Below are positions 20,885 to 45,520 of a stretch of DNA of 64,000 bases, piece by piece (within the stretch, counting starts at the first letter, position 1; every line of letters begins with the position of its first letter). Origin of the DNA: Verrucomicrobiota bacterium (GTDB taxonomy: Bacteria; Verrucomicrobiota; Verrucomicrobiia; Opitutales; Cerasicoccaceae). The translations under genes were made by a program, and so were the position numbers. The stretch is taken from assembly GCA_039818205.1 (NCBI GenBank), contig JBCBUK010000007.1, forward strand, positions 193,675 to 257,674, written 5' to 3'. The notes beneath the pieces were generated by a model. That model was not told the origin of the DNA. It did not search any database and saw nothing but the letters and a program-made list of their open reading frames with translations.

Positions 20885-20960
20885 GCCACCTTAGCTCAGC
20901 TGGTAGAGCGGTTGATTTGTAATCTCCAGGTCGTCGGTTCGACTCCGACAGGTGGCTCCA
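20885..20960 (+). tRNA. tRNA-Thr(UGU)
   Basis: 76-nt cloverleaf: GCCACCT/AGGTGGC acceptor stem, GCTC/GAGC D stem, TTTGTAA anticodon loop, GTCGG-TTCGACT-CCGAC T arm, encoded CCA. The anticodon stem has two mismatches. Confidence 0.92.
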
Positions 20961-20962
20961 TT
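20911..20962 (+). repeat. attL: 52-bp direct repeat (3' part of tRNA-Thr)
   Basis: GTTGATTTGTAATCTCCAGGTCGTCGGTTCGACTCCGACAGGTGGCTCCATT, identical to 45469-45520. Confidence 0.95.
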
Positions 20963-20999
20963 TTTCCTGAAGGCTGAATCGCCTTTGAATATGCCAAAA

Positions 21000-21036
21000 C
21001 CCGCATCATTACTAAGATGGCGGGATTTTTTGTTTT
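21000..21036 (+). terminator. Intrinsic terminator after the tRNA, supplied by the element
   Basis: CCCGCATC...GATGGCGGG hairpin followed by ATTTTTTGTTTT. Confidence 0.65.
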
Positions 21037-21119
21037 CCAACCCCAGAGAGCGACTCGATTGAGATAGGAATTTCAAAATTGTTGAAAAATCCAGTATATT
21101 GGTCTATTCAGGTCTACCT

Positions 21120-22229
21120 ATGGGACGAAAGAAGAAAGGCGCACGGGTATACAGAATTAAGCATCCCACAATGAACTGGCAGGTAACGCTTACTCAGTCA
21201 GACGGACGCAAAATACGGGAATACTTCAAAAAGGAGTCGGACGCTAACAAACGAGCTGAAGAGCTCAACCAGAGAATACTGATCGAAGGAGTTGATGGGG
21301 TTTTATTTGGAGCCGAAGCTCGTGCGGAATACGCTGCTTGCAAACGCAAGCTAGCTGGACGAGATGTTTCCCTCCTCGCAGTCGTCGACGAATGGTTGAA
21401 CAGCCATCCGAAAACAATCAAAAAGGATTTTAGAGACGCGATTGACGAGTTTTGCGAGGCGAAACGGTCCGCAAATCGAAGAGAAATCACCATATCGAAG
21501 TACGCTCGGTGTCTCAAAGAGTTCCAGCTATTTTCGCTCCTATCAAGCATTGACCAAATCCAACCGCAACATTGCAGGAACTACCTACTACGGCCATCGT
21601 TAGCTCCTGCAACTATGCAAAATTACCGAGCCACACTGAGCAGTTTCTGTAGCTACTGCAGGAAGCGAGGCTGGCTAGAGACCGATCCATTAAAGTCGAT
21701 TGATCGTCCGACATTGGATGCAAACAATCCGGTTGTATTGTCCCCTGATGAGGTGGCGAGATTCATGGCTTGCTGCGCGAAGCTCAGCGATGGACGGATT
21801 GTTCGGGCGGTAGCTCTTCGACTTTTCGCGGGTTTACGCCCTGGGGAGCAAGAAGTGTTAACTGAGCGAGATATTCTAAAAGATGGGATTCGCGTTGGGG
21901 CGGGTAAGATTCGGGGCCGACGCTCGGTACGCATAGTGCCAATTTCATCAATCCTCAAGGGTTGGCTGGATGCGTTTCCTGATGCTTCGCTCCAACCAAC
22001 GAACTTCCGCAAGTTGCAGGAGCAAGCGATTGAGCAAGCTGGACTATCGAAGATTTGGGCAAAGGATATTCTCCGCCATACCTGGATCTCTTACCGGCTG
22101 GCCGAAACGAACGACGAACGGCTTGTCGCGCGGGAGGCAGGAAATTCGCCGGATATCATCTACCGGCACTACTTCCAGCTGGTTTCGGCTGACGACGTCG
22201 AGCGATTTGGGAAGTATTGCCTGCTTTAG
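21120..22229 (+). CDS. Tyrosine recombinase / phage integrase
   Basis: N-terminal arm-binding-like region, core-binding domain, catalytic AGLRPGE, DILRHTWISY and AGNSP...RHY; about 160 bp from attL. Confidence 0.93.
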   Translation: MGRKKKGARVYRIKHPTMNWQVTLTQSDGRKIREYFKKESDANKRAEELNQRILIEGVDGVLFGAEARAEYAACKRKLAGRDVSLLAVVDEWLNSHPKTIKKDFRDAIDEFCEAKRSANRREITISKYARCLKEFQLFSLLSSIDQIQPQHCRNYLLRPSLAPATMQNYRATLSSFCSYCRKRGWLETDPLKSIDRPTLDANNPVVLSPDEVARFMACCAKLSDGRIVRAVALRLFAGLRPGEQEVLTERDILKDGIRVGAGKIRGRRSVRIVPISSILKGWLDAFPDASLQPTNFRKLQEQAIEQAGLSKIWAKDILRHTWISYRLAETNDERLVAREAGNSPDIIYRHYFQLVSADDVERFGKYCLL

Positions 22230-22669
22230 CTTCCTGAATCCTCGAAGGAAACAATCGTTTTGTCGCCTTGGAATTGGTCATGTCCGGTGAGCGATGCGAA
22301 ATCGTCTCCCTGGAAGATCATCTGTTGTGGACGATCTTCTTGAGCAAAGACAGATTGAGCGTTGTAGGCCCGCCACGGCCAATCGTTAGGACGGTTTTCC
22401 CGAATGAACTCTTTCAGGGCTTCCATTCGATTGCATAGGCGCAATCCGTTATGGAGATTCTCGTTTGAATCGCTCGAATCCAATACCGGCGACTCCCATT
22501 CCGGAAGGGTCAGGTCAAGGTAGCTGATTTGCTGCTCTAGTAGCATGATTTCCTCGGTGAGCATTAGCAGGATTCGACGCCGCTCACTGAGATCGCTGTT
22601 TGCCCACAGCGCGCAGCGAAAATACCACGCAGCCGGGCGCATTGAGTGTTCTGCATTTGTGTCCGTCAT
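22226..22669 (-). CDS. Hypothetical protein of the element
   Basis: ORF convergent with the integrase and downstream of the RHH regulator; ATG at 22669 chosen. Confidence 0.6.
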   Translation of the reverse strand: MTDTNAEHSMRPAAWYFRCALWANSDLSERRRILLMLTEEIMLLEQQISYLDLTLPEWESPVLDSSDSNENLHNGLRLCNRMEALKEFIRENRPNDWPWRAYNAQSVFAQEDRPQQMIFQGDDFASLTGHDQFQGDKTIVSFEDSGS

Positions 22670-22726
22670 GTTACAAAGTATTGGACGAAGAATTGAAGTC
22701 TTGAGCTGTTTAGCGGTCAACGACAA

Positions 22727-23002
22727 TCAGCTGGCGGCCTTCTTTGCTTTGCCTGACCGTGATTTCCTCTTGTAGGGGCTGGCCGCATCCGTTGGCTCGG
22801 CCTGCGTCGTTTTTGCGGCTTTGGTAGTGGGAACCACCTTGAGTGGGCTGCTGATGTAGCCGTTTTCCTTGTAGAACTCAATTATGGCCCGCGCGGCGTG
22901 CCTGAGGAGCATGCCAGCGGGCATATCAACCTCTGCGCAAATTGCTTCGAACTCCTCTTTGAGGTCATCTTCCACGGTAACATTGATCTGTTTTCGAGCC
23001 AT
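22727..23002 (-). CDS. Ribbon-helix-helix family regulator (putative repressor)
   Basis: KQINVTVEDDLKEEFEAICAEVDM...LLRHAAR gives a beta-strand plus two helices; divergent from the replication operon. Confidence 0.7.
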   Translation of the reverse strand: MARKQINVTVEDDLKEEFEAICAEVDMPAGMLLRHAARAIIEFYKENGYISSPLKVVPTTKAAKTTQAEPTDAASPYKRKSRSGKAKKAAS

Positions 23003-23152: not shown

Positions 23153-23398
23153 ATGAGCAAGAAGAACGAACTGAAGGACTGGGTAACGCCGGCATTTGTG
23201 GCTCGGCGGTTTTGTCTTAGTCCATCCACAATTTTGAAACACATCATCGCCGGAAACATTGAAGCGTTTCCGAGCCGCTTAAACAAAAAGGGCCGCCCGT
23301 CTGGTTTCCGCATAAAGCGGACTGAGGTCATGCGTTTGGATCGGTGCGGGATTCGTCCGCGCATCCACAATTTCAACAACGGCCTTCGCGCCATTTGA
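23153..23398 (+). CDS. Excisionase-like HTH DNA-binding protein
   Basis: WVTPAFVARRFCLSPSTILKHIIAGNIEA...FRIKRTEV matches the Xis/HTH_17 pattern; small and basic. Confidence 0.7.
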   Translation: MSKKNELKDWVTPAFVARRFCLSPSTILKHIIAGNIEAFPSRLNKKGRPSGFRIKRTEVMRLDRCGIRPRIHNFNNGLRAI

Positions 23399-23405
23399 GG
23401 GCCTT

Positions 23406-23609
23406 GTGATGCTGGACGAGAAAACAGACTACAACGTTATCATCTGCGAGCAATGCGGCGGCGTTGGTTATCACTGGTTCGAGGAACGGCTAGACGGGTA
23501 CGGAAAGAACACCCGCCAGCACAAGGAGGAGTGCTGCGCATGCCAGGGCTCGGGCCGTTTGTCCGTGGAGACCACGACACGCATCAAACCATTCGGAGTA
23601 TCCAGATGA
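23406..23609 (+). CDS. Small zinc-finger protein
   Basis: CEQCGGVG and CCACQGSG (two CxxCxGxG repeats); in the operon with the Xis-like gene. Confidence 0.65.
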   Translation: MMLDEKTDYNVIICEQCGGVGYHWFEERLDGYGKNTRQHKEECCACQGSGRLSVETTTRIKPFGVSR

Positions 23610-23748
23610 TCTCTACAGCATACCACTTTGGGCGACAGCAATTGGGCACAAAGCGTTTCTTGGCGCGAGGTCCTGAATCCCACATCGAGGAAAGAAGAGG
23701 AGCGAGCGCGATGAATCATTCTTCCTTTCTGCTCGTTGCAGTTACCCC

Positions 23749-23895
23749 GCTGGGTGGGTCTTTGGCTTTGCCAGGCCTGCCCAGCACTGACTTTTGCGCT
23801 CAACTCGTGTCAACCCGTCCGGCTTCGCAGGATGCGACCGGGCGGGATCAGGAGAGATTTCAGAATGACTTTATCACGGAGGGCTTGTTACCCCG
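23749..23895 (+). other. Putative rolling-circle double-strand origin
   Basis: Two long GC-rich hairpins (23749-23785, 23814-23846) and CTTGTTA (23884-23890) just upstream of rep. Confidence 0.45.
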
Positions 23896-23961
23896 TTTAA
23901 TCCAACTATTCGCACCCCCACTGCGGGTCGCAGGCGTAGCCGAAGACGGGAAGGCTCCTCA

Positions 23962-24924
23962 ATGAAACTTAACAAGATGGACCGCGGCGAAGCGTACTCG
24001 ATGGGTCGCACCGAAACCGCCTACGCCGACGAATACGCCAACAACGATTTACCTTCAGGTGAGATTCAAGTTCTGCCGTACCGGGCTAAGAGTTACCTTT
24101 GCGATGGTGGCGGACGATTGATTCATCGTGACATGGTGCGCCGGGGTATGCCGACCGATTTTACGGGCTGGTTGTTCGTTACGCTCACGCTCGATCGCGA
24201 GTTCTTCGACCACGACCCCGAGCTCGGATACTTAGTTGGCAAGGAGCGTATGCGACGCTTCTTCGATTACTTAAAGAAGCATGGTCACAAAATCGAAAAG
24301 TGGATTTGGAAGCTCGAGTTTCATCCCGAATCTCCCGAGTGGGTGCACTGGCATCTGCTATTGGATCATCGGAAGTTTGTGCCTTGGGAATTGATTCAGC
24401 GCGCTTGGAATCTTGGACGCGTCAACGTCGAGCGAGTCGAGAGTTACGCTCAGGGTCAACGCATCGGCGAGTATGAGTTTAAGTATGTCTTCAAGGAAGG
24501 CATGGGCCCGCCCAAGTGGCTGCTGAAGTATAAGCGCATTCGCTTCATCCAAACGAAGGGCATCTTCGAAAAGAAGTCTAAGACCAAAGATGAGACCGTC
24601 GAAGAGGAGCTAAACCGCAAAGAGGAACAGCACGCTTACGAAGGCAAAGACAACCGTAGCGAGTCGCCCACGATCGGTGAGCGCATGCAGATGTGGAAGC
24701 GCAAGATTACGGCGGTCTACGACACCGCTGAAGGTAAGCAAGTGCGGTCCTATGAACTCGTAACGACCGCCGAACGTTTCTTCGGCCACCTTTGGAATTT
24801 ACCAACTAACCTTCGGTGCTTGATGGCACCGTTTCACGCGATTGTTCGCAAACATCAAATAATACTAGATTATGTCAGAGTTAACAACCACCTCGCCACG
24901 CATCTCCAAGGCGCTCTTGGATAA
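23962..24924 (+). CDS. HUH-superfamily rolling-circle replication initiator (Rep)
   Basis: Motif I FVTLT, motif II KLEFH...VHWHLLL, motif III YEFKYVFK (YxxxY), in the Rep order. Confidence 0.85.
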   Translation: MKLNKMDRGEAYSMGRTETAYADEYANNDLPSGEIQVLPYRAKSYLCDGGGRLIHRDMVRRGMPTDFTGWLFVTLTLDREFFDHDPELGYLVGKERMRRFFDYLKKHGHKIEKWIWKLEFHPESPEWVHWHLLLDHRKFVPWELIQRAWNLGRVNVERVESYAQGQRIGEYEFKYVFKEGMGPPKWLLKYKRIRFIQTKGIFEKKSKTKDETVEEELNRKEEQHAYEGKDNRSESPTIGERMQMWKRKITAVYDTAEGKQVRSYELVTTAERFFGHLWNLPTNLRCLMAPFHAIVRKHQIILDYVRVNNHLATHLQGALG

Positions 24925-25372
24925 GTTCTTCATCCAGCCTGAGGCTGAGAAGCTCAAAGGAAAACACCACGTCGAAGGGCTACTGCTTGCCGGACGCGTT
25001 ACCACGATCAAGCACACGCCGCATACGAGCGAGAGAAATGGCGAGACCATCTTCAAAGTGCAAACGGCGATCGAGATCGAATCCGACGGGCGCAAGTATC
25101 AATACTCCAGTTGGTCGAACCTCAACGAGGGACAAGAACCCATCGAGCTTAAGCGCGATACGCATTACATCTTTAGCGTCGGAGGACTCAAGAGCCACCG
25201 AGTTACCGATGGCACTTATACCGATCGCAACGGAAACGAACGGGCTAACACGGTCGCCGAACTCACCGAGGTTCGCCGGCTAGAAGTAGCCGAGTTGGAA
25301 ATTCGCCCGAAGGGCGCGAGCTCCACGCCTTCGGATGCGGATGCGCGGCAGCGCGCCGCGACGAAGTCGTGA
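24872..25372 (+). CDS. Putative single-stranded DNA-binding protein (positional analogue of inovirus pV)
   Basis: Overlaps the end of rep, precedes the coat gene, beta-strand-rich OB-like pattern. The call is mainly positional. Confidence 0.5.
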   Translation: MSELTTTSPRISKALLDKFFIQPEAEKLKGKHHVEGLLLAGRVTTIKHTPHTSERNGETIFKVQTAIEIESDGRKYQYSSWSNLNEGQEPIELKRDTHYIFSVGGLKSHRVTDGTYTDRNGNERANTVAELTEVRRLEVAELEIRPKGASSTPSDADARQRAATKS

Positions 25373-25446: not shown

Positions 25447-25647
25447 ATGAATCCATTCAAAAACATATGGGCCGTCTTCTTCTGCATGATGGCAACGACG
25501 TTTGCCCAAGTAACCACATCGGACCTAAGCGCGGTTGAAACCGCCGTGGGCGATGTCGAAACCATCTGGGGAACAATCGCTACGATCATCATCGGCGTTG
25601 CTGCCGTGATGGTGGGTAAGAAGTTCCTCCGAAGGGCAGGCTCCTAA
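25447..25647 (+). CDS. Filamentous-phage (inovirus) major coat protein-like
   Basis: 20-aa signal peptide (..ATTFA|) and a 46-aa mature chain with an acidic amphipathic N-part, hydrophobic TM (IWGTIATIIIGVAAVMVG) and basic tail (KKFLRR). Confidence 0.8.
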   Translation: MNPFKNIWAVFFCMMATTFAQVTTSDLSAVETAVGDVETIWGTIATIIIGVAAVMVGKKFLRRAGS

Positions 25648-25688: not shown

Positions 25689-25785
25689 CGACTCGCGATG
25701 CGCGATGGAAATTGGTCTAACTTGGTTAGTGTGTGCCACCGGCGTGTTTCATTATGCAAATACTCGATAATCTAACTTCCGAGAA

Positions 25786-26017: not shown

Positions 26018-26046
26018 TTGACAAGCGACTTAGTCTCAATTTCATA
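26018..26046 (+). promoter_or_regulatory. Promoter of the iron ABC operon overlapped by the 17-bp operator
   Basis: TTGACA at 26018-26023; AAGCGACTTAGTCTCAA (26023-26039) fills the -35/-10 spacer. Confidence 0.6.
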
Positions 26047-26195: not shown

Positions 26196-27206
26196 ATGAA
26201 ACGAAGCAGTATCTCCCTTGTAATATTTGGTCTAATAGGATTTTCACTATCCTTAGATGCGCTGACGGTTTACAGCTTCCGACATTATCCAGCCGACGAT
26301 GCTTTGTTTGAAAAATTCACCGAGCAAACTGGCATTCCGGTAGAGGTTGTTAAAGCCAAAGCGGGAGCGCTCTTGGAACGCCTAGAAGCAGAAGGTGATC
26401 AGTCACCGGCGGACATTCTGATTACCTCTGACGCAGCCCGCCTGCACATAGCGACTGAGAAAGGTCTTTTGCAACCAATCGACTCACCGATCCTTAAAGA
26501 GCGGATTCCTCCTTACCTGCGTGACCCGAACGACAACTGGTTCGGTTTTACACAGCGAGCTCGAGTCTTCGTATACAATCCGGAATCTGTTTCTAGTAAA
26601 GACCTGACGACCTATGAAGATCTCGCCAATCCAGAGTGGCGAGGTCGGATTGTATGCCGTTCATCCTCTAACGTTTATAATCAGTCTTTGTTGGCATCAG
26701 TCATCGCAGCGGACGGAAAAGACGCTGCGATCAATTGGGCAAAAGGTGTAAGAAAGAACATGGCGCGCGCACCGCAGGGCAATGACCGGGACCAAATCCG
26801 CGCAGTAGCAAAGGGCTTAGCCGATCTCGCAATCGTGAACACCTACTACGTCGGTCTAATGTTGAATTCAGATGACCACAAAGACCGAAAAATCGCCCAA
26901 CGGCTAAAAATATTCTTCCCTAACCAGGCTAACCGCGGCACTCACATAAATATCAGCGGAGCAGGCATCACCAAAGCTTCGAAAAACATTGAGGATGCCA
27001 AAGCCTTTCTAGAATTTTTGGCATCCGATGAAGCCCAAAGCACATTCCCAAACGCAACTTACGAATATCCTGTAGTAAATGAGGTTGAGTGGTCCGAACA
27101 ACAAAAGGAGTGGGGCCAGTTTAAATCAGACACCCTATCACTAGACCTCCTAGGCGAGAATAACGCCAACGCGATTCGCGTATTCAACCTAGCGGGTTGG
27201 GAGTAA
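26196..27206 (+). CDS. fbpA: Fe(3+) ABC transporter substrate-binding protein (FbpA/FutA type)
   Basis: Signal peptide, VYSFRHY, RSSSNVYNQSL, GNDRDQI, NTYY iron-binding tyrosines, GTHINISGAG. Confidence 0.92.
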   Translation: MKRSSISLVIFGLIGFSLSLDALTVYSFRHYPADDALFEKFTEQTGIPVEVVKAKAGALLERLEAEGDQSPADILITSDAARLHIATEKGLLQPIDSPILKERIPPYLRDPNDNWFGFTQRARVFVYNPESVSSKDLTTYEDLANPEWRGRIVCRSSSNVYNQSLLASVIAADGKDAAINWAKGVRKNMARAPQGNDRDQIRAVAKGLADLAIVNTYYVGLMLNSDDHKDRKIAQRLKIFFPNQANRGTHINISGAGITKASKNIEDAKAFLEFLASDEAQSTFPNATYEYPVVNEVEWSEQQKEWGQFKSDTLSLDLLGENNANAIRVFNLAGWE

Positions 27207-27208
27207 AC

Positions 27209-28813
27209 GTGAATCGCCAATTGCAGCTGCGCCGAGCAGTTGACAGCTGGTCGATTAGCACGGTCGTCGTTTGTTTGGCGATCTTGACCCCGTTGGCAGT
27301 CATTTTCCTATCGGTTTTTAAGACAGCCCCCGACTGGCAGCACATCCAGTCTACTGTTCTCACCCTCTATATAGGCAATACACTCTTCCTAGTTTTCGCA
27401 GTAGGATTTGTCGCGTTTCTTTTCGCTGCACCGACTGCTTGGTTTGTGGTCTACTACGATTTCCCTGGCAAACGGTGGCTATCATGGGCCTTGGTCTTGC
27501 CCTTGGCGATTCCCACGTACGTCGCGGCCTTCACCTACTACGATTTATTAGACCACACGATACCCTTGATAGTTGCTGCAAGGAAAGCCTGGGGGTTTGA
27601 GGCCTCCCAAAGGTTGGAACAAATTCTTCGATACGGCTTGCTCGTCCTCCTGATGAGCAGTGTCCTCTACCCATACATCTTCTTTACTCTCCGGGCGTCA
27701 TTTATGCGCCAGCAAGCGGTTTTCCTAGAGGCAGGCCGTATGCTGGGCAAATCAACTGGCAGTATTTTCTGGCAGATCGCACTCCCCCTATCCAGACCAG
27801 CATTGGTGGCAGGCCTCGGCCTAGTGGCGATGGAAGTAATCAATGATTATGGCGCCGTCAATTTCTTTGGAGCTCCGACACTGACAGAAGGGATATTCCG
27901 AACTTGGTTCGGACTGGAGGATCAAGCATCGGCAATGCGCCTGGCCTTATCAATGACCGTGCTCGTCCTCATTTTGCTTGGATTTGAATTGTGGACCCGT
28001 CGACGGGTGCGCTTCGCGGCCGGAGAACTCGAAGGGCATAGCCTCATGCCAGTCCGAATTCGCGGGTACAAGGGTTGGCTGATTACATTCATATGTATTG
28101 TTCCTCTTTTCACAGGATTTCTTTTCCCTGTCTTCCGCCTGCTACATTGGGCCGTGCTTTCATTTGGAGATTTTGACTTTTCTACCATTGGCCCACAGAT
28201 AACCAAAAGCTTAATACTCGCGGCCACAACTACCGTTATACTCGGAGCTGTCGCATTACTATTCGCGTTTTGCGGACGAGTACACCCTAGTCTAAGTCTT
28301 CGCCGAATAATTCGTGTAGCAACCATAGGATATGCGATACCTGGTGCAGTCATTGCAGTCGGCGTTATGACCTTGTTCGGCACGGTCGACCAAATGGTTT
28401 CTCATCACATCCTTGGCGGAAGCCTATTTGCGCTTGGGTTCGCTTACCTCATTCGGTTCCTCACGATTGCATACCAACCACTTGATGCGGGGATGAATAG
28501 CGTTGGTCAAAGCCTTCTTGATGCATCGTTCATTCTAGGCAGGTCGAGAATTCAAACGCTTCTAAGAATACACCTCCCTTTGTTGATGCCAGTGCTGCTT
28601 GCGGCATCAATTCTCGTCTTTATCGATATCCTTAAAGAACTTCCGCTTACTTTGATCCTGCGGACAAGTGACTTTGAAACACTAGCAACCTATGCTTTCG
28701 GATTTGCAAAAGAGGGCGCAATCTATGATTGTTCCATACCGTCGCTTTGTATTATCTTGGCCGGCAGCGTTGGTTTGATTCTGGCCAATCGTTGGATGCG
28801 GCCTAGCACATAG
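27209..28813 (+). CDS. fbpB: Fe(3+) ABC transporter permease
   Basis: Duplicated BPD permease with LPLAIPTYV, LPLSRPA and ILKELPLTLILR motifs; GTG start. Confidence 0.92.
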   Translation: MNRQLQLRRAVDSWSISTVVVCLAILTPLAVIFLSVFKTAPDWQHIQSTVLTLYIGNTLFLVFAVGFVAFLFAAPTAWFVVYYDFPGKRWLSWALVLPLAIPTYVAAFTYYDLLDHTIPLIVAARKAWGFEASQRLEQILRYGLLVLLMSSVLYPYIFFTLRASFMRQQAVFLEAGRMLGKSTGSIFWQIALPLSRPALVAGLGLVAMEVINDYGAVNFFGAPTLTEGIFRTWFGLEDQASAMRLALSMTVLVLILLGFELWTRRRVRFAAGELEGHSLMPVRIRGYKGWLITFICIVPLFTGFLFPVFRLLHWAVLSFGDFDFSTIGPQITKSLILAATTTVILGAVALLFAFCGRVHPSLSLRRIIRVATIGYAIPGAVIAVGVMTLFGTVDQMVSHHILGGSLFALGFAYLIRFLTIAYQPLDAGMNSVGQSLLDASFILGRSRIQTLLRIHLPLLMPVLLAASILVFIDILKELPLTLILRTSDFETLATYAFGFAKEGAIYDCSIPSLCIILAGSVGLILANRWMRPST

Positions 28814-28814
28814 T

Positions 28815-30455: not shown

Positions 30456-30552
30456 TTGAAACTCGGTCTCAATCGCAAATATGGTGCGACTAAATCTCAA
30501 CATTATACTTGAAGTCAACAGAAAATTTAAATTTATTGCAATCAAGTCTCAT
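30456..30552. promoter_or_regulatory. Three 17-bp palindromic operators in a divergent promoter
   Basis: TTGAAACTCGGTCTCAA (30456-72), GTGCGACTAAATCTCAA (30484-500), TTGCAATCAAGTCTCAT (30536-52). Confidence 0.7.
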
Positions 30553-31063: not shown

Positions 31064-31082
31064 AACTATCCTCACTACCACA

Positions 31083-33792: not shown

Positions 33793-33828
33793 TTTCTTGC
33801 TAGTTACAGACCGTCAAATGTTTAAGAC

Positions 33829-33859: not shown

Positions 33860-33885
33860 TTCTCCATTTTTAAGATTCAAATACG

Positions 33886-34644: not shown

Positions 34645-34702
34645 AGCATTTTGATAGTTTCTTGGGTAAGCTCTCTCATCCTTCTCTGTGCACAGTTCCA
34701 CT

Positions 34703-35314: not shown

Positions 35315-35348
35315 CCGAGTGCCCTACTCTTCGAAAACAAAGCCTCCT

Positions 35349-36314: not shown

Positions 36315-36315
36315 G

Positions 36316-37713
36316 ATGGCTAATCCATTTTCAAATCGTCCGGCGAAAACAGTCTTAGTGGATACGGGGCACGGCTACTTTCGGGTAGATCTAGGCCAGA
36401 AAGCAGGTCGCTTTCAAGTTCTCCGTGTCATTACTAACGGCGATTCATCTGAATCAGCCCGTTCAGACGATTTCTTTGAAGATGCGTTAGCCGTTGACGA
36501 CGGAGCTTGGATTACCGCCCTTCTGCAACTAAAGCCAAAGCCGGCTGCGGCAGTTAAAGTGCTCAGCGCGAAGGTCGCGGCGGCTGTGATGGAAATGCCT
36601 TACCTCAGTGGAGAAAGCGAGGGGGAATCGGTTTCGATGGAGCTTGAGAGCCTAACAGGCTTGAGCACTGTTGAATCACAATGGACTTGGAAACGGCTCC
36701 CCAGCGAAGAGGGCTTATTGAGAGCATGGGCAATCCAAGCTTCATTTGAACAGCTAATGGCTTGGCGTAACGTAGTCGGCTCAGTTCGCGGATGCCACTT
36801 GGCAGCGGTCTGCCACCCCGGCGGGATACAGTTAGGAACTGTTTCACAGCTAGAGCTTTGGCCCGGTTTAGCCCTCTATCAGCAGACCGACACCAATGCA
36901 CGCAATCTCCAGGGTTGGTCAGGAGAAGGCTCCAGCATCTCGGCTGTGGCCGATGTCTCAGTAGGCGACTCAATTTCTCGAGGTAACCTACTTTTACTAC
37001 TTCCCAATGGAGAAATTCCCGCTGAGGCAAGTGATTGTGCTACGATACGGTTGGATGAGGAAGCAGGTCGCCTAAAATGGGCTGAACATCTCGCCGAAGC
37101 ATTGGACCCTTTGAGTAAATCTCTCGAAGCGCTTCCGCGGCTCGTGATTCCCAAACCCGAGATGTCCAATCGCGAGTTGGCTCTCGTAACCGCGGGAGTA
37201 ACGGGTGCCGCAGTTCTTCTTGCAGTAGCACACTTCGCTTTCGTTAAGACATCCAGTAAAAACCTCGAGCAACAAGTTGCTTCAATGAGACTGCCTGTGG
37301 AAGAGGTTCGGGATGGCGAGAAAAAGATCAATGACCTTAAGCGAGAGCTTAGAAGGTTACAGGGCAAAAGAAGCGACGAACCGTTTGATGTAAGCGCTCA
37401 TCGCTCTCGGATGGCAAGTCTATTGCATCTTCTAGCCCATGCAGTCAATGAGGAGGTAGTCATGCAAGGTATCGAAAGCCGCGGCTTGGATATAATGGTT
37501 TCCGGAGTCTCGGCATCGTCACAAGGGCCCGCCAACTATGTCCGCTCCTTAAACCAATTTGTCACCGATACTGGATGGCGTGCAACGCTTGCTGGTCGTG
37601 ATGCGACTCTTGTATTTCCAGATGGTGGCCCGTGGACGTTTACTGTGGAGCTCTCACCGGCGAACGATAGCCTAGCGAGCGCCCAGGCAAACCAAGGGAG
37701 GACTCAACCTTGA
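36316..37713 (+). CDS. GspL / PilM-PilN-like assembly platform protein
   Basis: Large cytoplasmic region, single TM, coiled coil and a PilN-like C-terminal domain; operon position. Confidence 0.65.
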   Translation: MANPFSNRPAKTVLVDTGHGYFRVDLGQKAGRFQVLRVITNGDSSESARSDDFFEDALAVDDGAWITALLQLKPKPAAAVKVLSAKVAAAVMEMPYLSGESEGESVSMELESLTGLSTVESQWTWKRLPSEEGLLRAWAIQASFEQLMAWRNVVGSVRGCHLAAVCHPGGIQLGTVSQLELWPGLALYQQTDTNARNLQGWSGEGSSISAVADVSVGDSISRGNLLLLLPNGEIPAEASDCATIRLDEEAGRLKWAEHLAEALDPLSKSLEALPRLVIPKPEMSNRELALVTAGVTGAAVLLAVAHFAFVKTSSKNLEQQVASMRLPVEEVRDGEKKINDLKRELRRLQGKRSDEPFDVSAHRSRMASLLHLLAHAVNEEVVMQGIESRGLDIMVSGVSASSQGPANYVRSLNQFVTDTGWRATLAGRDATLVFPDGGPWTFTVELSPANDSLASAQANQGRTQP

Positions 37714-38279
37714 ATAGTTTATCCAAGAGAGATCGCCTTTTGCTCACAGTATTACCCGCCGCAGTACTGCTGTTAATTTATGGCTTTTTCATTTCGAAGC
37801 CTGCCATGAATGAATTGAAGGAACTACAGCGCCAAGCTGATGCTCTCCAAACACGCATGCCTCCTCAAGCCGAGCGAGCCAGAGTCCGCCAGGAACAGGT
37901 TAAGTTGAATTCGCAGGTTCAGAAGCTCAAAAAAAACAATGGCTCAGGTTCGGGTACACCGGCACTGGTACCAACTTCTGATGCAACGATGCGTGCCGAT
38001 GCTTTATTCGAGGCACTACTTGAGCAACATCGAGTTATCTTGATGAGCGAGGCGATAGCGGAAACTAACGATACACGTGCCTTTCGTCGAATCACCGACA
38101 ATAGTCCAGGCACCACCCTCTGGAAAATTGAACTTGCTGGCAATTACGCCAATGTTGCCCATTTGCTCGCCGCTCTCGGAGAGACTCATCTTCCCATAAC
38201 GCCGGTTGCACTAGAGATGGATGCCAGCCTTCAAACAAAATCCGATCTTCGTCGGTGGTATCTCTGGAGTTACCGATAA
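37710..38279 (+). CDS. GspM / PilO / MshJ-like protein
   Basis: LSKRDRLLL start, TM, coiled coil, IELAGNYANVAHLLAAL motif. Confidence 0.7.
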   Translation: MNSLSKRDRLLLTVLPAAVLLLIYGFFISKPAMNELKELQRQADALQTRMPPQAERARVRQEQVKLNSQVQKLKKNNGSGSGTPALVPTSDATMRADALFEALLEQHRVILMSEAIAETNDTRAFRRITDNSPGTTLWKIELAGNYANVAHLLAALGETHLPITPVALEMDASLQTKSDLRRWYLWSYR

Positions 38280-39451
38280 TGGAAGATACAGAAGTAAAAG
38301 CATCGCAACGGCTCTTAAATGAGATGCTACAAGCGTTGGTTGAGCATGACGCCTCAGACCTGCACTTAGCTCCAGACCATTCGCCACTTTTTAGAATCGA
38401 TGGTCGATTGCGAACAGAAGAACCATTCCTTGCTCGGCTTAACAGTAACCAGCTCCAGTCGATCGCATCTCAGTTAATTGGTGATAACGTATCTGATGCG
38501 ATTCCTCCCTCGGGGTCTATCGATGGCGCGATGAGCTTAGGAGCGGACAAACGCTTCCGATATAACGTATATAATCGACTACCGGGTATTGCTATTGCGA
38601 TACGTCGATTAGAGAGCCGCTTTCGCAGCCTAGAGGAACTCGGGCTACCCCAAACGCTTACCAACTGGTGTGATCTGAGTGATGGCTTAATCCTAGTTGC
38701 TGGCCCCACTGGCTCGGGCAAAAGCACGACTCTGGCAACGCTTATTGATCAAATCAATCGAACGCGCTCGACCCATATTATTACGATCGAAGATCCAGTT
38801 GAATATCTCCACCTCTCGCAAAAGAGTCGAATTGATCAGCGACAGGTGGGGACTCATACACCCGATTTTCATTCAGCGCTCATATCCAGCCTTCGGCAAG
38901 ACCCAGACGTCATTCTAGTTGGCGAGATTCGTGAAAGAGAAACGATTCGGACTGCGTTGACCGCGGCTGAAACCGGACACTTGGTGTTTGCGACGGTTCA
39001 TGCTCCAGACTGTGCCGGGGCAATTCAACGAATTTCTTCTGCATTTCCCGCCGATGAACAATCCGGAGTTCTACGGCAACTAAGCATGAACCTACGCGGT
39101 GTCCTGACACAGCACCTTGTGCCGTCGGACGGCCCGGTAACAACTAGACCCCAGCCTAACCTGGGTAAACGTCCACGGGTTGCCTTGAGCGAAGTTCTTC
39201 AAGTAACACCTGCTGCAGCTAACCTCATTGCCCGCGGCCAGTTCCACAATCTCTATTCATTTATGGAGACTGGTGCGAAACATGGAATGCAAACTCTGGA
39301 AGAGTGCCTTCTCCAATGGGTAAGAACTGGGTTTTTGCAGCGATCAACCGCACTCGCTTGCACGCGAAATCCGAGAATCCTGGAGCAGCGCATGGCCAGA
39401 GAATTGGGAGCCTCCCATTCATCAACTGCTAACGCACGCCTACGCCGATAG
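38279..39451 (+). CDS. pilT: PilT/PilU family retraction ATPase
   Basis: ASDLHL, GPTGSGKST, HIITIEDPVEY, LRQDPDVILVGEIRE, AAETGHLVFATVH, AAANLIAR (AIRNLIRE-like), GMQTLE. Confidence 0.9.
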   Translation: MEDTEVKASQRLLNEMLQALVEHDASDLHLAPDHSPLFRIDGRLRTEEPFLARLNSNQLQSIASQLIGDNVSDAIPPSGSIDGAMSLGADKRFRYNVYNRLPGIAIAIRRLESRFRSLEELGLPQTLTNWCDLSDGLILVAGPTGSGKSTTLATLIDQINRTRSTHIITIEDPVEYLHLSQKSRIDQRQVGTHTPDFHSALISSLRQDPDVILVGEIRERETIRTALTAAETGHLVFATVHAPDCAGAIQRISSAFPADEQSGVLRQLSMNLRGVLTQHLVPSDGPVTTRPQPNLGKRPRVALSEVLQVTPAAANLIARGQFHNLYSFMETGAKHGMQTLEECLLQWVRTGFLQRSTALACTRNPRILEQRMARELGASHSSTANARLRR

Positions 39452-39467
39452 TTTATCTACGTTTGCT

Positions 39468-41042
39468 ATGTCTTCCGCCGAAAACCTCAAAACCGATACC
39501 AGAGTCTCTGCGCAGGAAACGCTCAGCGAGGCAGCGGCATTGGACCTTGAGGAGATCAAATTTGATCCGCGTTGGGCGCTGCAAACCCCGCCCAGCCTCA
39601 TGATCCGCCGGCGTTTACTTCCTCTTGTCGAGTTGGAAGGGAAACTACATGTGGCCGTCGAGAAGTCACTCGACCCGACCTCCGAAAAACTTTTGCAGCG
39701 GTTGACGGGTCTGCCTCTCGTTCCAGTTGTTGCTACCGGAGATTCAATCCGAGCTCTGCAAACCAGGCTCTTTGGGAACCTTCGAAACGCGAGTCGGCAA
39801 GATCGCCCGATCATCGATACGTCTTCGACGCGCGTGGAGGTCCGTGACGGCAACGCGGAAGAAGCAGTAACGGTTTGCGATCAACTACTGAAGACCGGCT
39901 TAATCCGTGGAGCATCGGATATTCATTTCAACGTACAACGAGATGGTTCAGTCCAAGTTCGGCTCCGCATCGACGGCGTACTCACTGAGGAGCTTGTGCT
40001 ACCGGAAGGTTTACGTCTAGCACTGTTCAATCGCTTGAAAGTTCTTGGCGGTCTGGATATCTCAGAAAAACGTGCGTCCCAAGACGGATCCTTTGCCTTT
40101 GAACCTGGCGGTGTTTTGCCCCGTGCGGAAGTACGTATGGCCACAATTCCTGCGAGGCATGGAGAACGCATTACACTGCGTTTACTCATGCGGGAAGACA
40201 GTGGCCTAACTCTAGACAGTTTGGGGTTCTCGGAACAGCACCGTGATCAATTTTCTCGCGCGATTAGTCTTTCCCACGGAATGATCCTACTCACGGGACC
40301 AACTGGAAGCGGTAAAAGCACAACTCTTTATGCCGCGATCAAGCATCTGCTTGCGCAGAAAATGGTTAATGTGATGACTGTAGAGGACCCCGTCGAATAC
40401 GAGATCGATGGGGCAACACAAACCGAAGTTGACGCGCGTCGAGAAAAGGTTTCATTCGCGTCATCCTTGCGTAGTATTCTGCGGCACGACCCAGATGTAG
40501 TAATGCTGGGAGAGATACGAGACCGTGAAACCGCGGAGCTAGCGGTTCGTGCAGCGCTTACGGGTCACCTAGTATTGAGCACTCTGCACACAAACACCGC
40601 CGTAGGCGCGGTTACTCGCTTGATTGATCTAGGAATCGATCGCTTCCTGATTGGCACCATTCTCCGATTGGTTGCTGCTCAGCGACTCGTGCGCGTTCTC
40701 TGTCCGCAATGCCGAATCAAAGACAGTATCGCAGATTCCGAGGCAGCACTTTTGCATCAGCCCGCTCTTCAAGGAGAACCTTGTTGGCGTCCAAAAGGAT
40801 GCTTACACTGTGCCAGCCGGGGATTCGTTGGCCGTTCTGGCCTATTCGAAGTTTTCCCAATCGGTTTGGAGGAATCTCGCCTAATCGGCAACGCATCAAA
40901 TGCCGATTCGATTGAATCGAAACTAGTTGAACTGCGGGATGCAAACAAGAACCCATCGCTGATGTCCGATGGCTTAAAGCGTGTTCAATCCGGACAAACG
41001 ACCATTCAAGAGGTGATTAACGCAACCTCGGACTTCGTGTAA
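39468..41042 (+). CDS. GspE/PilB family extension ATPase
   Basis: N-terminal T2SSE_N-like region, ASDIH, GPTGSGKSTTLY, TVEDPVEY, GEIRD, tetracysteine CPQC...CLHC. Confidence 0.93.
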   Translation: MSSAENLKTDTRVSAQETLSEAAALDLEEIKFDPRWALQTPPSLMIRRRLLPLVELEGKLHVAVEKSLDPTSEKLLQRLTGLPLVPVVATGDSIRALQTRLFGNLRNASRQDRPIIDTSSTRVEVRDGNAEEAVTVCDQLLKTGLIRGASDIHFNVQRDGSVQVRLRIDGVLTEELVLPEGLRLALFNRLKVLGGLDISEKRASQDGSFAFEPGGVLPRAEVRMATIPARHGERITLRLLMREDSGLTLDSLGFSEQHRDQFSRAISLSHGMILLTGPTGSGKSTTLYAAIKHLLAQKMVNVMTVEDPVEYEIDGATQTEVDARREKVSFASSLRSILRHDPDVVMLGEIRDRETAELAVRAALTGHLVLSTLHTNTAVGAVTRLIDLGIDRFLIGTILRLVAAQRLVRVLCPQCRIKDSIADSEAALLHQPALQGEPCWRPKGCLHCASRGFVGRSGLFEVFPIGLEESRLIGNASNADSIESKLVELRDANKNPSLMSDGLKRVQSGQTTIQEVINATSDFV

Positions 41043-41043
41043 G

Positions 41044-42273
41044 ATGGGGCAGTTTTTCCATACATCAAGCCTGCCCTCAGGTGAGCGTCGCCAAGGTGTT
41101 ATTGAAGCCGATACCTTGGACGCCGCGCGTTGGTCGCTGCTAGAACAGGGTTTGCGTCCAGAGAAGCTACAGCCAGCGGGTGCCAATCAAGTTGGACAGA
41201 GCGGCGCAGCATCATCATTCGAGCTCAACCGTGTTGATCCGCGCAATTGGGGCGGCGTAAAATCAGTCCATATCGAACTGACACTTCGGCAGCTATCGGT
41301 AATGCTTCGTAGTGGTTTAACGCTGTTGGCTGCAATTGATACGATCATTGAACTTCCGCCCTCGCGAGCAGTGCGTCGTACTTACGAACAAATTCGTGTT
41401 AAGCTCGAAGGTGGAAGCTCTCTGGCAGATGCGATCTCCGATGAGAAGGGCTTTCCTAAATCGGTTGTCGCGATGATCAGCCTTGGTGAAGAAAGTGGAA
41501 ACCTCGATATCGTAATGAGACGATCGGCCGAGGCGATGGAAAGCGTTCGCCGAAACCGCAACGCCATGATCACCGCCCTATTCTACCCGACCTTCACGTT
41601 GACCTTCGCAATTGGCATCTGCGTATATATGGTTATCGCAGTTATTCCGCCAATGAAGAGAGCCCTTCAAGCATTGGGTCGACCGTTACCCGGGATGACT
41701 CAGTCCCTGCTTGATTTGTCCGATTTCGTCAACACTTACGGACCGGCCATTCTTGCCATTGTTGTCGTCTCGATTCTGACCTTTATATTCATCTATCTTT
41801 GGCCACCCGGCCGGTTAGCTGTTGACCGCACTCTTTTGCGACTTCCGCTTGCCGGTACAATCCTAAGATGCGGAGGAACAGCGCTTTTCGCCCGTTCCAT
41901 GGCAACGCTATTAGAAAGCGGCATTCGGTTGGTCGAGGGCCTTCGCATTCTTACTGCAGTTCACGGGAACAAGCATTTTGCTGCGGTGGTAGACTCAGCC
42001 CGCAATCGCATACTTGAAGGTGGAACGCTCGCGGACAGTCTAGGCCGTGGCCGTGCATACACACCGATGATGGTTAAAATGGTCGGAGTCGGAGAGTCAT
42101 CCGGTAACCTAGAGGAAACTTTGGTCAATGTTGCCGACTTCCATGATGAACGACTGCAGACCCTAATTAAACAGCTTAGCGCCCTTATTGAGCCGATGAT
42201 CGTACTGTTAGTCGGCGGGCTGGTCGGTTACATATATATAGCCTTCTTCGTTGGCCTCTATGGAGCCATGTAA
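41044..42273 (+). CDS. GspF/PilC family inner-membrane platform protein
   Basis: Two T2SSF repeats (RQLSVMLRSG, GEESGNL, GESSGNL, LIEPMI). Confidence 0.93.
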   Translation: MGQFFHTSSLPSGERRQGVIEADTLDAARWSLLEQGLRPEKLQPAGANQVGQSGAASSFELNRVDPRNWGGVKSVHIELTLRQLSVMLRSGLTLLAAIDTIIELPPSRAVRRTYEQIRVKLEGGSSLADAISDEKGFPKSVVAMISLGEESGNLDIVMRRSAEAMESVRRNRNAMITALFYPTFTLTFAIGICVYMVIAVIPPMKRALQALGRPLPGMTQSLLDLSDFVNTYGPAILAIVVVSILTFIFIYLWPPGRLAVDRTLLRLPLAGTILRCGGTALFARSMATLLESGIRLVEGLRILTAVHGNKHFAAVVDSARNRILEGGTLADSLGRGRAYTPMMVKMVGVGESSGNLEETLVNVADFHDERLQTLIKQLSALIEPMIVLLVGGLVGYIYIAFFVGLYGAM

Positions 42274-42354
42274 AACCAATTTTTCATGAGACTACTGCAA
42301 ATCAAACTTCTGGTCCGTAATTCTGAGGATCTCGAGCGGCTATTCCTTTCTAAA

Positions 42355-44514
42355 ATGAAGATTCTGATCGCCCTGATGATGTTACTTGGCATCCAGTCTG
42401 GCCACGCCCAATTCGATGGGGCAAGGCTTCCCGATCCAACACGTCCGAATCCGGTAACTAAAGATCCATCTAGCCCGAATCCGATCACCAAAGAAGCTCT
42501 GGACGCTCTTCGCCGTTCTGGCAACAGTACATCAAGCAACGATGATAAAGAGGTAGATATCGACTACATCCTCGTCGGTTTAGTAATCGGTGGAGACGTG
42601 GATTCACAACGAGGTGTCGCCCTAATCGCGGTGGATGAGAAGCTATTCTTAGTTGGCGAAGGTCAAACAATTCGCAGTGGTGATCACGACATCACGGCTA
42701 CGCAGATCGATGGCGATTCGATTATCGTATTCGATAATAAGGCCAACGAGGCCCACGTCCTTCGGAAAAACGTGCTTGGATTACCCGATGAGGAGGGAAA
42801 GTTATCAATCGTTGAATTTGCCGGTATTCCACTACCGTTCGCAATGCAGGCGTTGTCCTATGTGACAAATCTTCACATTGCTGTCTCAAGCGAAGCGCGC
42901 GATACCGCAGTAACACTGTTTTTGCGAAATGTCACGCCTGAGGAGGCCTTGGAAACGCTAGTAGCGACCCATCAACTCTATTCTAGCCCGATCAACGGTT
43001 CAGATATTTTACGCCTCCAAACTGTCGAAGAGTTTGCTCGCGGATCAACTACTTTCAGGGAGGAACGAAGCCGCGTTTTCACTCTTCGCTTCCCTAATGC
43101 CCGCGACATTGCACTTTCCATACGAGACCTCTTCGGGGAGCGCGTTCGGCTATCAGAGCGCATTGATGAAAGCGAAGAACCCGGTGAGTTCTTGACGGAT
43201 GATCTAGAGCAACGACTGGAGCGTTTCGATATCATTGCTGGCCGTAGCCAGGGTCTTGGTACCACGAGTGATACAACTACAAATGGTTCCAATTTCACTT
43301 CTAATCGCCTTTCGTCATCATCCTTCAACAGCAATCAAACGCAAAACTTTCGTGATACCGGACGTCGCAATGATCAGTTCAACAATAGAAACCGCTTCGA
43401 TTTAACCGAAGAGGAACTCCGTTTATTGGGGACCGTGGACGCAACACGAATCGAAGCGATTCGCGACGCTCGAGCCGACATCTTCGTATCAGTGATTGAT
43501 CGCTTAAATAAGTTACTCATCCGCACTCGCGACGAGCATACTATGGAGGAAATTGCCGTTTTGATTGAGGAACTCGACCAGCCTGCGAAACTGGTATTTC
43601 TAGAAGTTCGCATCCTTCAAGTTCAATTGGACGATGGTCTTGATACCGCTTTTAATTGGTCATTCAATGCCGGTGGATTTAGCGGCAGTTTCTCACCCGG
43701 TAACCCAACTGTTAACGGAAACTTCGTGTTCAGTTATCTGAACGATACTTTTCGAGCCGATCTGCAATTGCTCCAAGATAGGGACAAACTCACGGTCTTG
43801 GGACAGCCTGCATTGATGACGGCAAACAATGAAGTTAGCCGAATTTTTATTGGTGAACAAGTCCCAGTACTCGTTGGTTTCGGCGACAACACGACTGTCG
43901 TTACCGACCTAGGGAACACCGTAAACTTTGCGAATGCAGAGTATGTAGATCAAGATGTGGGCTCTACGCTTCTAATAACGCCTAACATCAATGATGATGA
44001 CACCGTCGAACTGAGATTGCTACAAGAAGAATCTCAAATCGTTAGAAATGGAGCCAATATTCTGGTGCCAGATGGCGATGGAACCTTCGACGAGCGTGCC
44101 ATTGATATCGTCGCGGCCCAGACCGTTAGCGGAACATTCATTGCGGCAAACAATCGGACCTTCGCAATCGGTGGATTGATTCAAGAATCGATCGAAGACG
44201 AACGGTCTCAGATTCCCGTTCTTGGCGATCTACCGCTAATAGGGCGGGCGTTTCGCAACCAAGCAACCACCCGTACTCGAAACGAGATCATCCTGCTCAT
44301 CACCCCAAGTATTATAGAGAACCCGTCCCACGGTGAGACCCTAGCCCAAGACTACGTGGATAGGCATTCACTATATCCAGATACTGACATAAAAGGCGGA
44401 AATCTAGGCGTTTTCAACGAAGACGAGGTGCTTGTTCCTGGTGAGCCGGCAAACGACCCTCCAGAAGAAGCCCTCGATGCATTATTCCACGATCGCTTCG
44501 GACCACGCCGATAA
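42355..44514 (+). CDS. Secretin (GspD/PilQ/MshL family) with an N-terminal MshK/PilP-like domain
   Basis: Signal peptide from ATG 42355; secretin motifs VFLEVRILQV, VGSTLLITPNIN, IPVLGDLPLIGRAF, EIILLITPSII. Confidence 0.92.
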   Translation: MKILIALMMLLGIQSGHAQFDGARLPDPTRPNPVTKDPSSPNPITKEALDALRRSGNSTSSNDDKEVDIDYILVGLVIGGDVDSQRGVALIAVDEKLFLVGEGQTIRSGDHDITATQIDGDSIIVFDNKANEAHVLRKNVLGLPDEEGKLSIVEFAGIPLPFAMQALSYVTNLHIAVSSEARDTAVTLFLRNVTPEEALETLVATHQLYSSPINGSDILRLQTVEEFARGSTTFREERSRVFTLRFPNARDIALSIRDLFGERVRLSERIDESEEPGEFLTDDLEQRLERFDIIAGRSQGLGTTSDTTTNGSNFTSNRLSSSSFNSNQTQNFRDTGRRNDQFNNRNRFDLTEEELRLLGTVDATRIEAIRDARADIFVSVIDRLNKLLIRTRDEHTMEEIAVLIEELDQPAKLVFLEVRILQVQLDDGLDTAFNWSFNAGGFSGSFSPGNPTVNGNFVFSYLNDTFRADLQLLQDRDKLTVLGQPALMTANNEVSRIFIGEQVPVLVGFGDNTTVVTDLGNTVNFANAEYVDQDVGSTLLITPNINDDDTVELRLLQEESQIVRNGANILVPDGDGTFDERAIDIVAAQTVSGTFIAANNRTFAIGGLIQESIEDERSQIPVLGDLPLIGRAFRNQATTRTRNEIILLITPSIIENPSHGETLAQDYVDRHSLYPDTDIKGGNLGVFNEDEVLVPGEPANDPPEEALDALFHDRFGPRR

Positions 44515-44905
44515 CGTTAAAGACTGGTCTGGTTGTCTACGGTCATGCTAAAGATCGTTATTTATACCAAAATCCATATGCGTTTATTTGCGTTTTGACT
44601 ACCGCAAATCATTGAAAGACTCTGACAGCAACTGCTTGAACCCCACCTTTAGGCCCAGACAATATGACTGTAATTGGCCGATTGATGTTTGGGTTGTTTA
44701 GTTGTTTGAGGTTCGGGCGGACTGAGGGCGCGATTGATAAAGGGGTTGATTTCCCTTTTTCTCGAATCGACTATTTAGAATAGCTTTCAAGCATATCCGA
44801 ACAATCAGCAGAGCCTTAGAGGGTGATGCTCTTCTAAGATCTTGGGTTTGGAAGACCTGCGGGCACTGCTTTGACTTTGGAGCTTTCAGAAGCATACAGT
44901 AAACC

Positions 44906-45343
44906 ATGGATATTGATAAAACCAAACTACATGTCACTCTTCTGAAATCTGGAGCCGCGCTTACTTGTGATCAAGTTGTTGATGACTTCATTCCAGAAAC
45001 ATTTTTGGAAACTGTTGAGTCTGGTTGGATCTCGGATGAGAGTTCTTTTGGGCCGATCTATCTGACTTCATTAAGCAAAATGCTAGATGTTAATAGGCGT
45101 GATCCAAGTGCTCTCGAGGCTGGATTGCTAATAATTGGTAGCGCCTCAAATGGCGATCCATTCGTGTTAGATCTTAATTCTGATAGCGGCGAAGTTGGCT
45201 ATCTGTCCCATGAACGTTTTTGGAATGGTGGTGGAGTCGATTCATATGTAAAACTGTCGGATTCGCTGATAGATTGTCTTGAGCTTTCTTTGACCGATGA
45301 ATCTTTCCCTATCGATTGGTATCAAGCTTCGGGCATTGATTAG
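44906..45343 (+). CDS. SMI1/KNR4 (SUKH)-like protein
   Basis: Acidic 145-aa protein with LLIIGSASNGDPFVLDL...GEVGYLSHE...LSDSL pattern. Confidence 0.6.
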   Translation: MDIDKTKLHVTLLKSGAALTCDQVVDDFIPETFLETVESGWISDESSFGPIYLTSLSKMLDVNRRDPSALEAGLLIIGSASNGDPFVLDLNSDSGEVGYLSHERFWNGGGVDSYVKLSDSLIDCLELSLTDESFPIDWYQASGID

Positions 45344-45468
45344 AAGCATTGGTTTGCTTGGCGTGTTTTGCTTGAGTTGTTACTTTGTAGGCAAGAAAGG
45401 GCGAACGCATACATAATAGTCTACTTTCAGTCTACTACACACTATCCTCCTTATTAACTGGCTAGTTC

Positions 45469-45520
45469 GTTGATTTGTAATCTCCAGGTCGTCGGTTCGA
45501 CTCCGACAGGTGGCTCCATT
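45469..45520 (+). repeat. attR: 52-bp duplicated tRNA-Thr 3' fragment
   Basis: Identical to 20911-20962; lacks the 5' acceptor strand and the D arm. Confidence 0.95.

Follow-up and report, generated by a model that had tools for sequence, protein, structure and literature searches.

According to the text of Roux et al. (2019, PMC6813254), inoviruses have genomes of about 5-15 kb and are defined and detected by pI, and the available sections of PMC3545932 report that the claim of a 'VPI phage' was withdrawn. Here I describe an element in a 64-kb window, the whole stretch of DNA analysed, from a Verrucomicrobiota bacterium of the order Opitutales (G000:C7:193675-257674, where G000 is the host assembly of 4.85 Mb in 66 contigs; G001-G005 denote genomes of the same genus). 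This element, the Thr element, spans 20911..45520 of the window, the sequence of which is free of N. About 19 kb of cargo occupies the place of the virion-assembly (morphogenesis) genes of a filamentous prophage. I consider it fairly likely that the Thr element is such a prophage that lost its virion-assembly genes, kept both attachment (att) ends and became an iron-starvation island, perhaps still excisable but forming no particles alone. It carries a coat gene and a rolling-circle Rep but lacks pI and pIII/pVI and exceeds 5-15 kb; a displaced tRNA-Thr fragment lies at its far end, as in tRNA islands, and it has its own replication module without morphogenesis genes, as satellites do. By its sequence it is therefore not an inovirus but a tRNA integrase island of satellite-like build.

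The left part of the Thr element consists of phage genes, which end abruptly:

21120..22229, + strand: tyrosine integrase, 369 aa (phrog_1, E 4e-29; alignment of family members)
22226..22726, - strand: conserved phage gene, function unassigned (51% to the G005 sibling)
22727..23002, - strand: likely Arc/ribbon-helix-helix (RHH)-like repressor (phrog_3180, E 0.015; 76% to the G005 sibling)
23153..23398, + strand: Xis-like helix-turn-helix protein (phrog_66, E 0.02, weak; 88% to the G005 sibling)
23406..23609, + strand: small CxxC zinc-finger protein (profile matches; sibling comparison)
23711..23965, + strand: conserved 84-aa open reading frame (ORF; sibling comparison)
23962..24924, + strand: HUH rolling-circle Rep, ORF2/G2P family (PF23343, E 1e-8, 35.4 bits against a cut-off of 27.8)
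24872..25372, + strand: single-stranded-DNA-binding (SSB)/pV-like protein (position and weak leads only; 77% to the G005 sibling)
25447..25647, + strand: pVIII-like major coat protein (PF05356, 26 bits against a cut-off of 23.5)
25698..25712, + strand: pIII stump, first five codons, and left cargo breakpoint (end of identity with G000:C35)

The sibling in question is a complete 13.6-kb prophage at tRNA-Thr(cgt) in the same-genus genome G005 (contig C35), bounded by a 53-bp att repeat. It shares the order int-repressor-xis-rep-ssb with the Thr element, at protein identities of 58% (integrase), 76% (repressor), 88% (Xis), 71% (Rep) and 77% (SSB-like). This order and the 58-88% identity bear out the inovirus origin proposed in the initial annotation, which was made from the bare sequence. 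After ssb, however, the G005 prophage continues with coat genes, pIII-like, pVI-like and Zot/pI genes, whereas the order in the Thr element ends after coat. It lacks the morphogenesis ATPase pI (Zot), pVI and, but for the first five codons, the adsorption protein pIII, and PF05707 (Zot) matches in G000 lie on contigs C35 and C42 only. Contig C35 starts within a coat gene, 92% identical in DNA to that of the Thr element, and goes on with pIII-like, pVI-like and Zot genes; its identity with the window stops at 25712, five codons into pIII, and the reading frame of the stump closes after 25 codons. Because pIII, pVI and pI are missing, the Thr element should be unable to build virions alone.

What remains of the core looks intact, as the initial annotation had it for int and rep. 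Integrase residues R240, K263, D316-x-x-R319-H320, G341-N342 and Y351 are invariant in all seven aligned family members (the family carries a D-for-H change among the catalytic residues, which the Thr-element integrase keeps), and the Rep has HWH and YxxKY motifs. The SSB-like protein drew only weak atlas leads (0.85-0.86), and its single-sequence fold, of low confidence (pLDDT, a per-residue model confidence score, of 48), gave no fold match at E<=0.001. The most conserved DNA ahead of rep is the 3' end of the 84-aa ORF (~23915-23955), which at a guess is the replication origin, though the hairpin there is weak.

Both ends of the Thr element are marked by its target tRNA and by repeats of two kinds:

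20885..20960, + strand: tRNA-Thr(tgt), the integration target (ARAGORN)
20911..20962, + strand: attL core, 52 bp, exact repeat of the tRNA-Thr 3' part
21100..21118, + strand: putative arm-type site pair GTCTAT..GTCTAC, just upstream of the int start (repeat comparison)
45417..45436, + strand: putative arm-type site pair GTCTAC..GTCTAC, inside attR (repeat comparison)
45469..45520, + strand: attR core, 52 bp, exact repeat of the tRNA-Thr 3' part

The two 52-nt att repeats are identical, spaced 24,558 bp apart, and form the sole long perfect repeat within the window; no third copy exists inside the element or elsewhere in the 4.85-Mb assembly, which upholds the repeat first reported. Sibling elements have att repeats of 49-57 bp that likewise begin close to the anticodon. 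The GTCTAC pairs, which I presume from the lambda-type integrase model to be arm sites, occur five times in 4.85 Mb, two of the occurrences being those of the Thr element, where the attR pair lies 50 nt inside attR. In eight two-ended family members, a repeat pair peculiar to each stands ahead of int and recurs at 33-63 nt inside attR (the pairings C16/C21 and C2/C26 being assumed across contigs from att identity), and cognate arms score at p<=0.031 in seven of the eight, with p=0.004 for the Thr element, against 3000 random genome stretches. The attR arm of the Thr element scores 22-24 with the three closest integrases only, and 18 or less with the other six. Matching arm repeats in both att sites indicate that both ends likely come from one element, rather than from a phage and a foreign island, and, with no internal att, they agree with the proposal that the whole is a single att-bounded unit.

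These repeats also bear on a tandem origin, in which an older cargo island stood in tandem with a complete prophage at the tRNA until a single deletion, removing the right half of the phage, the inner att and the left end of the island, joined both. I regard this as unlikely, although the site and a relative speak for it. All five same-genus genomes lack the cargo at tRNA-Thr(tgt), which favours the initial annotation, but G001 has an unrelated 24.8-kb island there, together with a sibling integrase that is frameshifted and lies behind a repeat of 50 bp, marking the site as a hotspot. These genomes are distant (72-76% DNA identity at one flanking gene) and their flanks are not syntenic: a sigma-54 regulator lies near the tRNA in G000, and sugar ABC genes lie upstream of it in the same-genus genomes. 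This difference places the site at a rearrangement point. The very intermediate demanded by a tandem fusion is seen in G014:C20 (L087-L089, 19057-67097), which reads tRNA-Arg, a complete 19.3-kb inovirus with its own secretin, att, a 28.8-kb block and att. The block, without an integrase, holds an operon for type IV filaments whose genes follow the order seen in the Thr element, MoxR-transglutaminase, FTR1, two imelysins and a di-haem protein, and recurs in G005:C28 and partly in G001:C42. The G014 outer att, however, abuts a coding gene, whereas the outer att of the Thr element bears the arm pair of its own integrase; the older island would thus need the same integrase subgroup, which folds the tandem origin back into descent from one prophage. 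I also considered whether the G014 filament and iron block is the same element as the Thr element and rejected this, since the identity is 28-42% and the block lies outside the phage's own att; the absence of a tRNA in the G001 and G005 stretches fetched counts against it too.

Between the pIII stump and attR lie the following:

26196..29546, + strand: FutA/FbpA-type Fe3+ ABC transporter, with binding protein, permease and ATPase (futABC; PDB 2pt1, E 2e-105 for FutA)
29749..30423, - strand: PEP-CTERM surface protein (TIGR02595, over cut-off)
30608..32039, + strand: flavodoxin and HemS/ChuX-like gene (fld-hemS; profile matches)
32133..32603, - strand: additional Fur paralogue (39% to the native Fur of G000:C3)
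33022..44514, + strand: type IV filament operon, ten genes (profile matches)
44630..44730, strand not assigned: right end of an insertion sequence (IS) relic of the IS3 family, between cargo and phage right arm (similarity to four IS ends in G000)
44906..45343, + strand: orphan SMI1/KNR4-like gene, weak (PF09346, E 0.0025, below cut-off)

Every gene in the initial annotation is therefore present, the Xis-like and SMI1-like calls being weak; the RHH repressor-like and SSB-like genes, the pIII stump and the IS3 end are additions. The ten filament genes encode four prepilins, PilM/N-like and PilO/GspM-like proteins, PilT, PilB/GspE, PilC/GspF and a secretin. The type IVa set is complete (prepilins, extension ATPase, platform, secretin and the retraction ATPase PilT, at 363 bits against a TIGR01420 cut-off of 319), but the PilB, PilC and PilQ equivalog cut-offs are all missed and the GspE/F/D models of the type II secretion system (T2SS) score slightly higher. 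The operon has no prepilin peptidase; one is found on G000:C4. The IS3 relic is 81-87% identical to four IS ends elsewhere in G000, and neither a left IS end nor a toxin remnant before smi1 was found in the element.

Where did this cargo come from? The closest named relatives of its pilin are labelled Verrucomicrobiota, one of them Rubellicoccus. FutA is found in two of 40 relatives, a close secretin in one of 40, and the pilin has three other matches in 400 genomes of the order. In G008 the whole ten-gene operon is present in order (52-82%), but 115 kb separate it from futABC and megabases from fld-hemS, and no phage genes lie beside any of them in the stretches fetched; G116 and G281 have the filament operon without phage or fut genes nearby. 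Scans with a pilin alignment gave eight full-length matches among at least 159 loci listed, and no phage or iron gene occurs within 10 kb of these eight. In the other genomes and contigs searched, the cargo blocks were never found together, nor inside a phage.

For fld-hemS, the source may be the host itself. A chromosomal cluster fld-hemS-X-fur is present in G001, G002, G005 and G008. In G000, by contrast, X-fur remains on C3 and the only close copies of fld-hemS are those inside the Thr element. With trees compatible with vertical descent, the pair is probably the host's own, moved into the element. Transfer of fld-hemS into G000, suggested by a grouping of G000, G003 and G008, was rejected, as G000 is basal in the marker tree and only G003 is discordant; that discordance suggests that the G003 pair is mobile on its own. 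In G003:C20 (L070, 1-2184), fld-hemS is detached from the native cluster and stands beside an IS3 transposase. Tetranucleotide distance is not diagnostic, placing cargo windows at the 57th-96th percentile and the right flank at the 93rd. The simplest reading would be stepwise capture of iron genes native to this family into a resident or incoming prophage.

The promoters of the cargo carry Fur-like boxes:

26024..26044, strand not assigned: two overlapping boxes before futA (11.9 and 12.5 bits)
30457..30499, strand not assigned: two boxes in the gap separating the PEP-CTERM and flavodoxin genes (16.7 and 13.9 bits)
32671..32977, strand not assigned: three boxes in the interval from fur to the first pilin (12.8, 10.2 and 9.1 bits)

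The box is a 7-1-7 palindrome, TGAGAYTNARTCTCA, scored with a matrix trained only on the flavodoxin promoters of five relatives (7 sites). In the 400 nt upstream, the best scores are 12.5 for futA, 16.7 for fld and 12.8 for the first pilin, and nine of 579 background upstream regions reach 12.5. Orthologous pilin promoters score 16.4/11.9 in G008 and 14.0 in G116, and the futA promoter of G032 scores 11.5. The intergenic top matches in G000 include genes that I take to resemble feoB and sdhC. An E. coli-type Fur consensus was also tried and set aside, with only two 13/19 matches. The palindrome before futABC, flavodoxin and the pilus operon, and before the pilus operons of relatives, makes the cargo resemble one iron-starvation regulon, which it probably is. 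In G014 and G005 a distant paralogue of the operon is linked to FTR1, imelysin and di-haem genes, and in G001 to FTR1 (no Fur-like box was found near it in the short stretches tested from these three genomes). The filament system may have a role in iron capture, for which PilA1 in the iron uptake of Synechocystis offers a precedent (PMC4144903).

On the reading of a disarmed prophage turned iron-starvation island, the cargo would derive from chromosomal genes of this family, some of them the host's own, and IS3 activity would have contributed at its right junction. While iron is sufficient, Fur would repress futABC, PEP-CTERM/fld-hemS and the filament operon; under iron shortage the filament system would help to reach or display iron-scavenging surface proteins. 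Once a repressor shared with sibling prophages is lifted, Int and Xis might release a circle of 24,558 bp, which Rep could replicate. Excision is thus plausible, but spread as a 'vector' is unsupported. The initial annotation had gone further and called the element a fitness-island vector; its inovirus origin, its unity and the intact look of int and rep stand, but the vector does not, as the morphogenesis genes after coat are all missing, the combination of phage and cargo occurs in no other genome or contig searched, the blocks are scattered in G008, and fld-hemS at least looks like relocated host DNA.

The vector might be rescued if a sibling inovirus packaged the excised, replicated element in long filaments, the Thr element supplying coat, borrowing pIII, pVI and pI, and delivering its iron regulon as a 24.6-kb transducing element. 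The frames of int, xis, rep, ssb and coat are all open, and G000 has two Zot genes and, on C35, a pIII-pVI-pI block whose coat region is the 92% identical one, so that this sibling prophage, split over contigs, is a candidate helper; RS1 and TLC operate in this way (PMC3545932, in the sections available). Even so, I find such an active satellite improbable. It has no second example, neither at the three pilin matches from 400 genomes, which in the stretches fetched do not lie beside phage or fut genes, nor at the eight further full-length loci among the pilin matches listed; no packaging signal was identified; and phagemid yield falls sharply above 10 kb in the portion of PMC13147996 available. 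If it were true, the cargo pilus and secretin might act as receptor and exit pore for the phage, and the Thr element would be a real counterpart of the withdrawn VPI-phage idea and a missing link from inoviruses to the widespread, undescribed rolling-circle islands without pI in this order. The sibling prophage on contigs G000:C35 (1-7707) and G000:C21 (1-3417) has large genes after pI (489 aa, 255 aa and one of >1750 aa running off the contig end), which suggests that big cargo may be a family habit.

Several observations weigh against the disarmed-prophage account. C2, C16 and C35 each have one end running into the core of the Thr element (three of 132 contig ends), C2 being identical over its last 77 nt; the core is near-identical to sibling prophages there and is probably a collapsed repeat shared with them, so that its 'intact' sequence may be a consensus of several copies; the same sharing would supply the candidate helper and the shared repressor. 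A cognate arm pair is top of its row in only four of eight elements, and a four-gap match in a G014 coding region outscored the window's own pair (26 against 24). Only one IS end was found, so that any capture route is conjectural. As for the boxes, the consensus was first noticed in the window itself, 14 of the 23 top genome-wide matches lie in ORFs, the G008 futA promoter scores only 9.8, and the best box near the pilin gene may serve fur instead. The converging contig ends also raise the prospect that a short-read assembler linked the tRNA-Thr left end to a wrong right end through the shared 3.5-kb core. I think this very unlikely, since no path but the assembled one joins the Thr(tgt) attL to an attR that is also of Thr(tgt) and has matching arms, since the transition from pIII to cargo falls outside the repeat, and since no contig end touches this att.

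The disarmed prophage is not isolated in its order. A survey of Rep elements (18 stitched loci with G005 and G014) delimited 11 Rep-bearing elements by att. Three are complete inoviruses (13.6, 18.7 and 19.3 kb), and the other eight (L110, L115, L116, L117, L119, L120, L121 and L122) are int-xis-rep-ssb elements of 6-9 kb, integrated in tRNA genes and without a pI match; their cargo is of defence type (type I restriction-modification, Mrr, NotI-like with a C5 methylase, Sir2) or consists of uncharacterised genes. No Zot gene was found in the whole assemblies of G003 and G012. The eight may represent rolling-circle islands or satellites of a class not described so far, and the Thr element is their oversized kin, with the coat gene and pIII stump still visible. 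A search with the single integrase returned no related loci in viral or genome contigs, and an integrase alignment found 17 viral loci at 23-36% identity, none with Rep, coat or Zot matches.

The same integrase family and arm-site layout are seen in two prophages without the Rep type of the Thr element, L107 (G185:C30, 1403-19274; 17.8 kb) and L111 (G010:C37, 1667-16634; 14.9 kb), both with a small packaging-type ATPase and the former coding a PM2-type double-jelly-roll capsid (PF18628, PF25513). Judging from these genes, a lysogeny module is common to filamentous and tailless phages, as described for Vibrio in the consulted text of PMC12715192. In L066, L067 and L069 (G013:C20, G002:C6 and G009:C1) a single Rep is flanked by two Zot and two pIII-like genes that face opposite ways; these are head-to-head double morphogenesis modules. 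The G005:C35 prophage carries a four-gene moron between int and repressor (L065, 1836-5247), comprising an AAA_28 kinase-like, a nucleoside 2-deoxyribosyltransferase, a thymidylate-synthase-like and one uncharacterised protein, which looks like a nucleotide-targeting anti-phage system. Finally, G000:C16 (13079-14107) has a cluster of seven tRNA genes that probably belongs to another mobile element; one of the seven has the unusual anticodon Asn(att).

Why does this matter? The Thr element catches the conversion of a filamentous prophage to a cargo island at base resolution, with the break in pIII and both att ends surviving. Elements like it are invisible to pI-based inovirus searches, and smaller versions without pI are frequent in this bacterial order. 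Independently of this, it suggests that marine verrucomicrobia have a type IV filament system regulated by iron. As filament length is set by the packaged DNA, inoviruses could in principle move large cargo, and a strain with a candidate helper on board makes such transfer directly testable. I found no literature on such an element or on filamentous prophages of Opitutales, within a scope that excluded subscription journals and supplements, including the inovirus supplement tables of PMC6813254, which may list these prophages.

Among described systems, compared here through the portions of each source available, the integrase-coding tRNA inovirus prophages (PMC6813254) share with the Thr element a tyrosine integrase, tRNA att, HUH Rep and small coat gene, and their gene order, that of the complete sibling, is also its order; unlike them, it has no pI, measures 24.6 kb rather than about 5-15 kb, and is three quarters host-type cargo. 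RS1 and TLC of Vibrio cholerae (PMC3545932) likewise have their own Rep and repressor, no morphogenesis genes and a helper (here a candidate) in the chromosome, but they are 2.7 and 5.4 kb and integrate by XerCD/dif, whereas the Thr element codes its own integrase and retains a coat gene and the stump of pIII; helper packaging, demonstrated for RS1 and TLC, is hypothetical for the Thr element. The accessory hotspots of filamentous prophages (PMC12715192, PMC11630473) also place cargo between core module and att, but this cargo measures about 2 kb on average, consists mainly of defence genes and leaves the morphogenesis genes in place, in contrast to 19 kb that replace them. VPI-1/TCP (PMC3545932) resembles it as an integrase island that is flanked by att and has genes for a type IV filament system, yet it has no inovirus genes, where the Thr element has rep, ssb-like and coat. 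Closest of all in build, the small int-xis-rep-ssb elements of the order share its Rep family, tRNA att, lack of pI and cargo after ssb, and differ in their 6-9 kb size, a mostly different integrase subfamily, restriction- or Sir2-type cargo and the absence of a recognisable coat gene.

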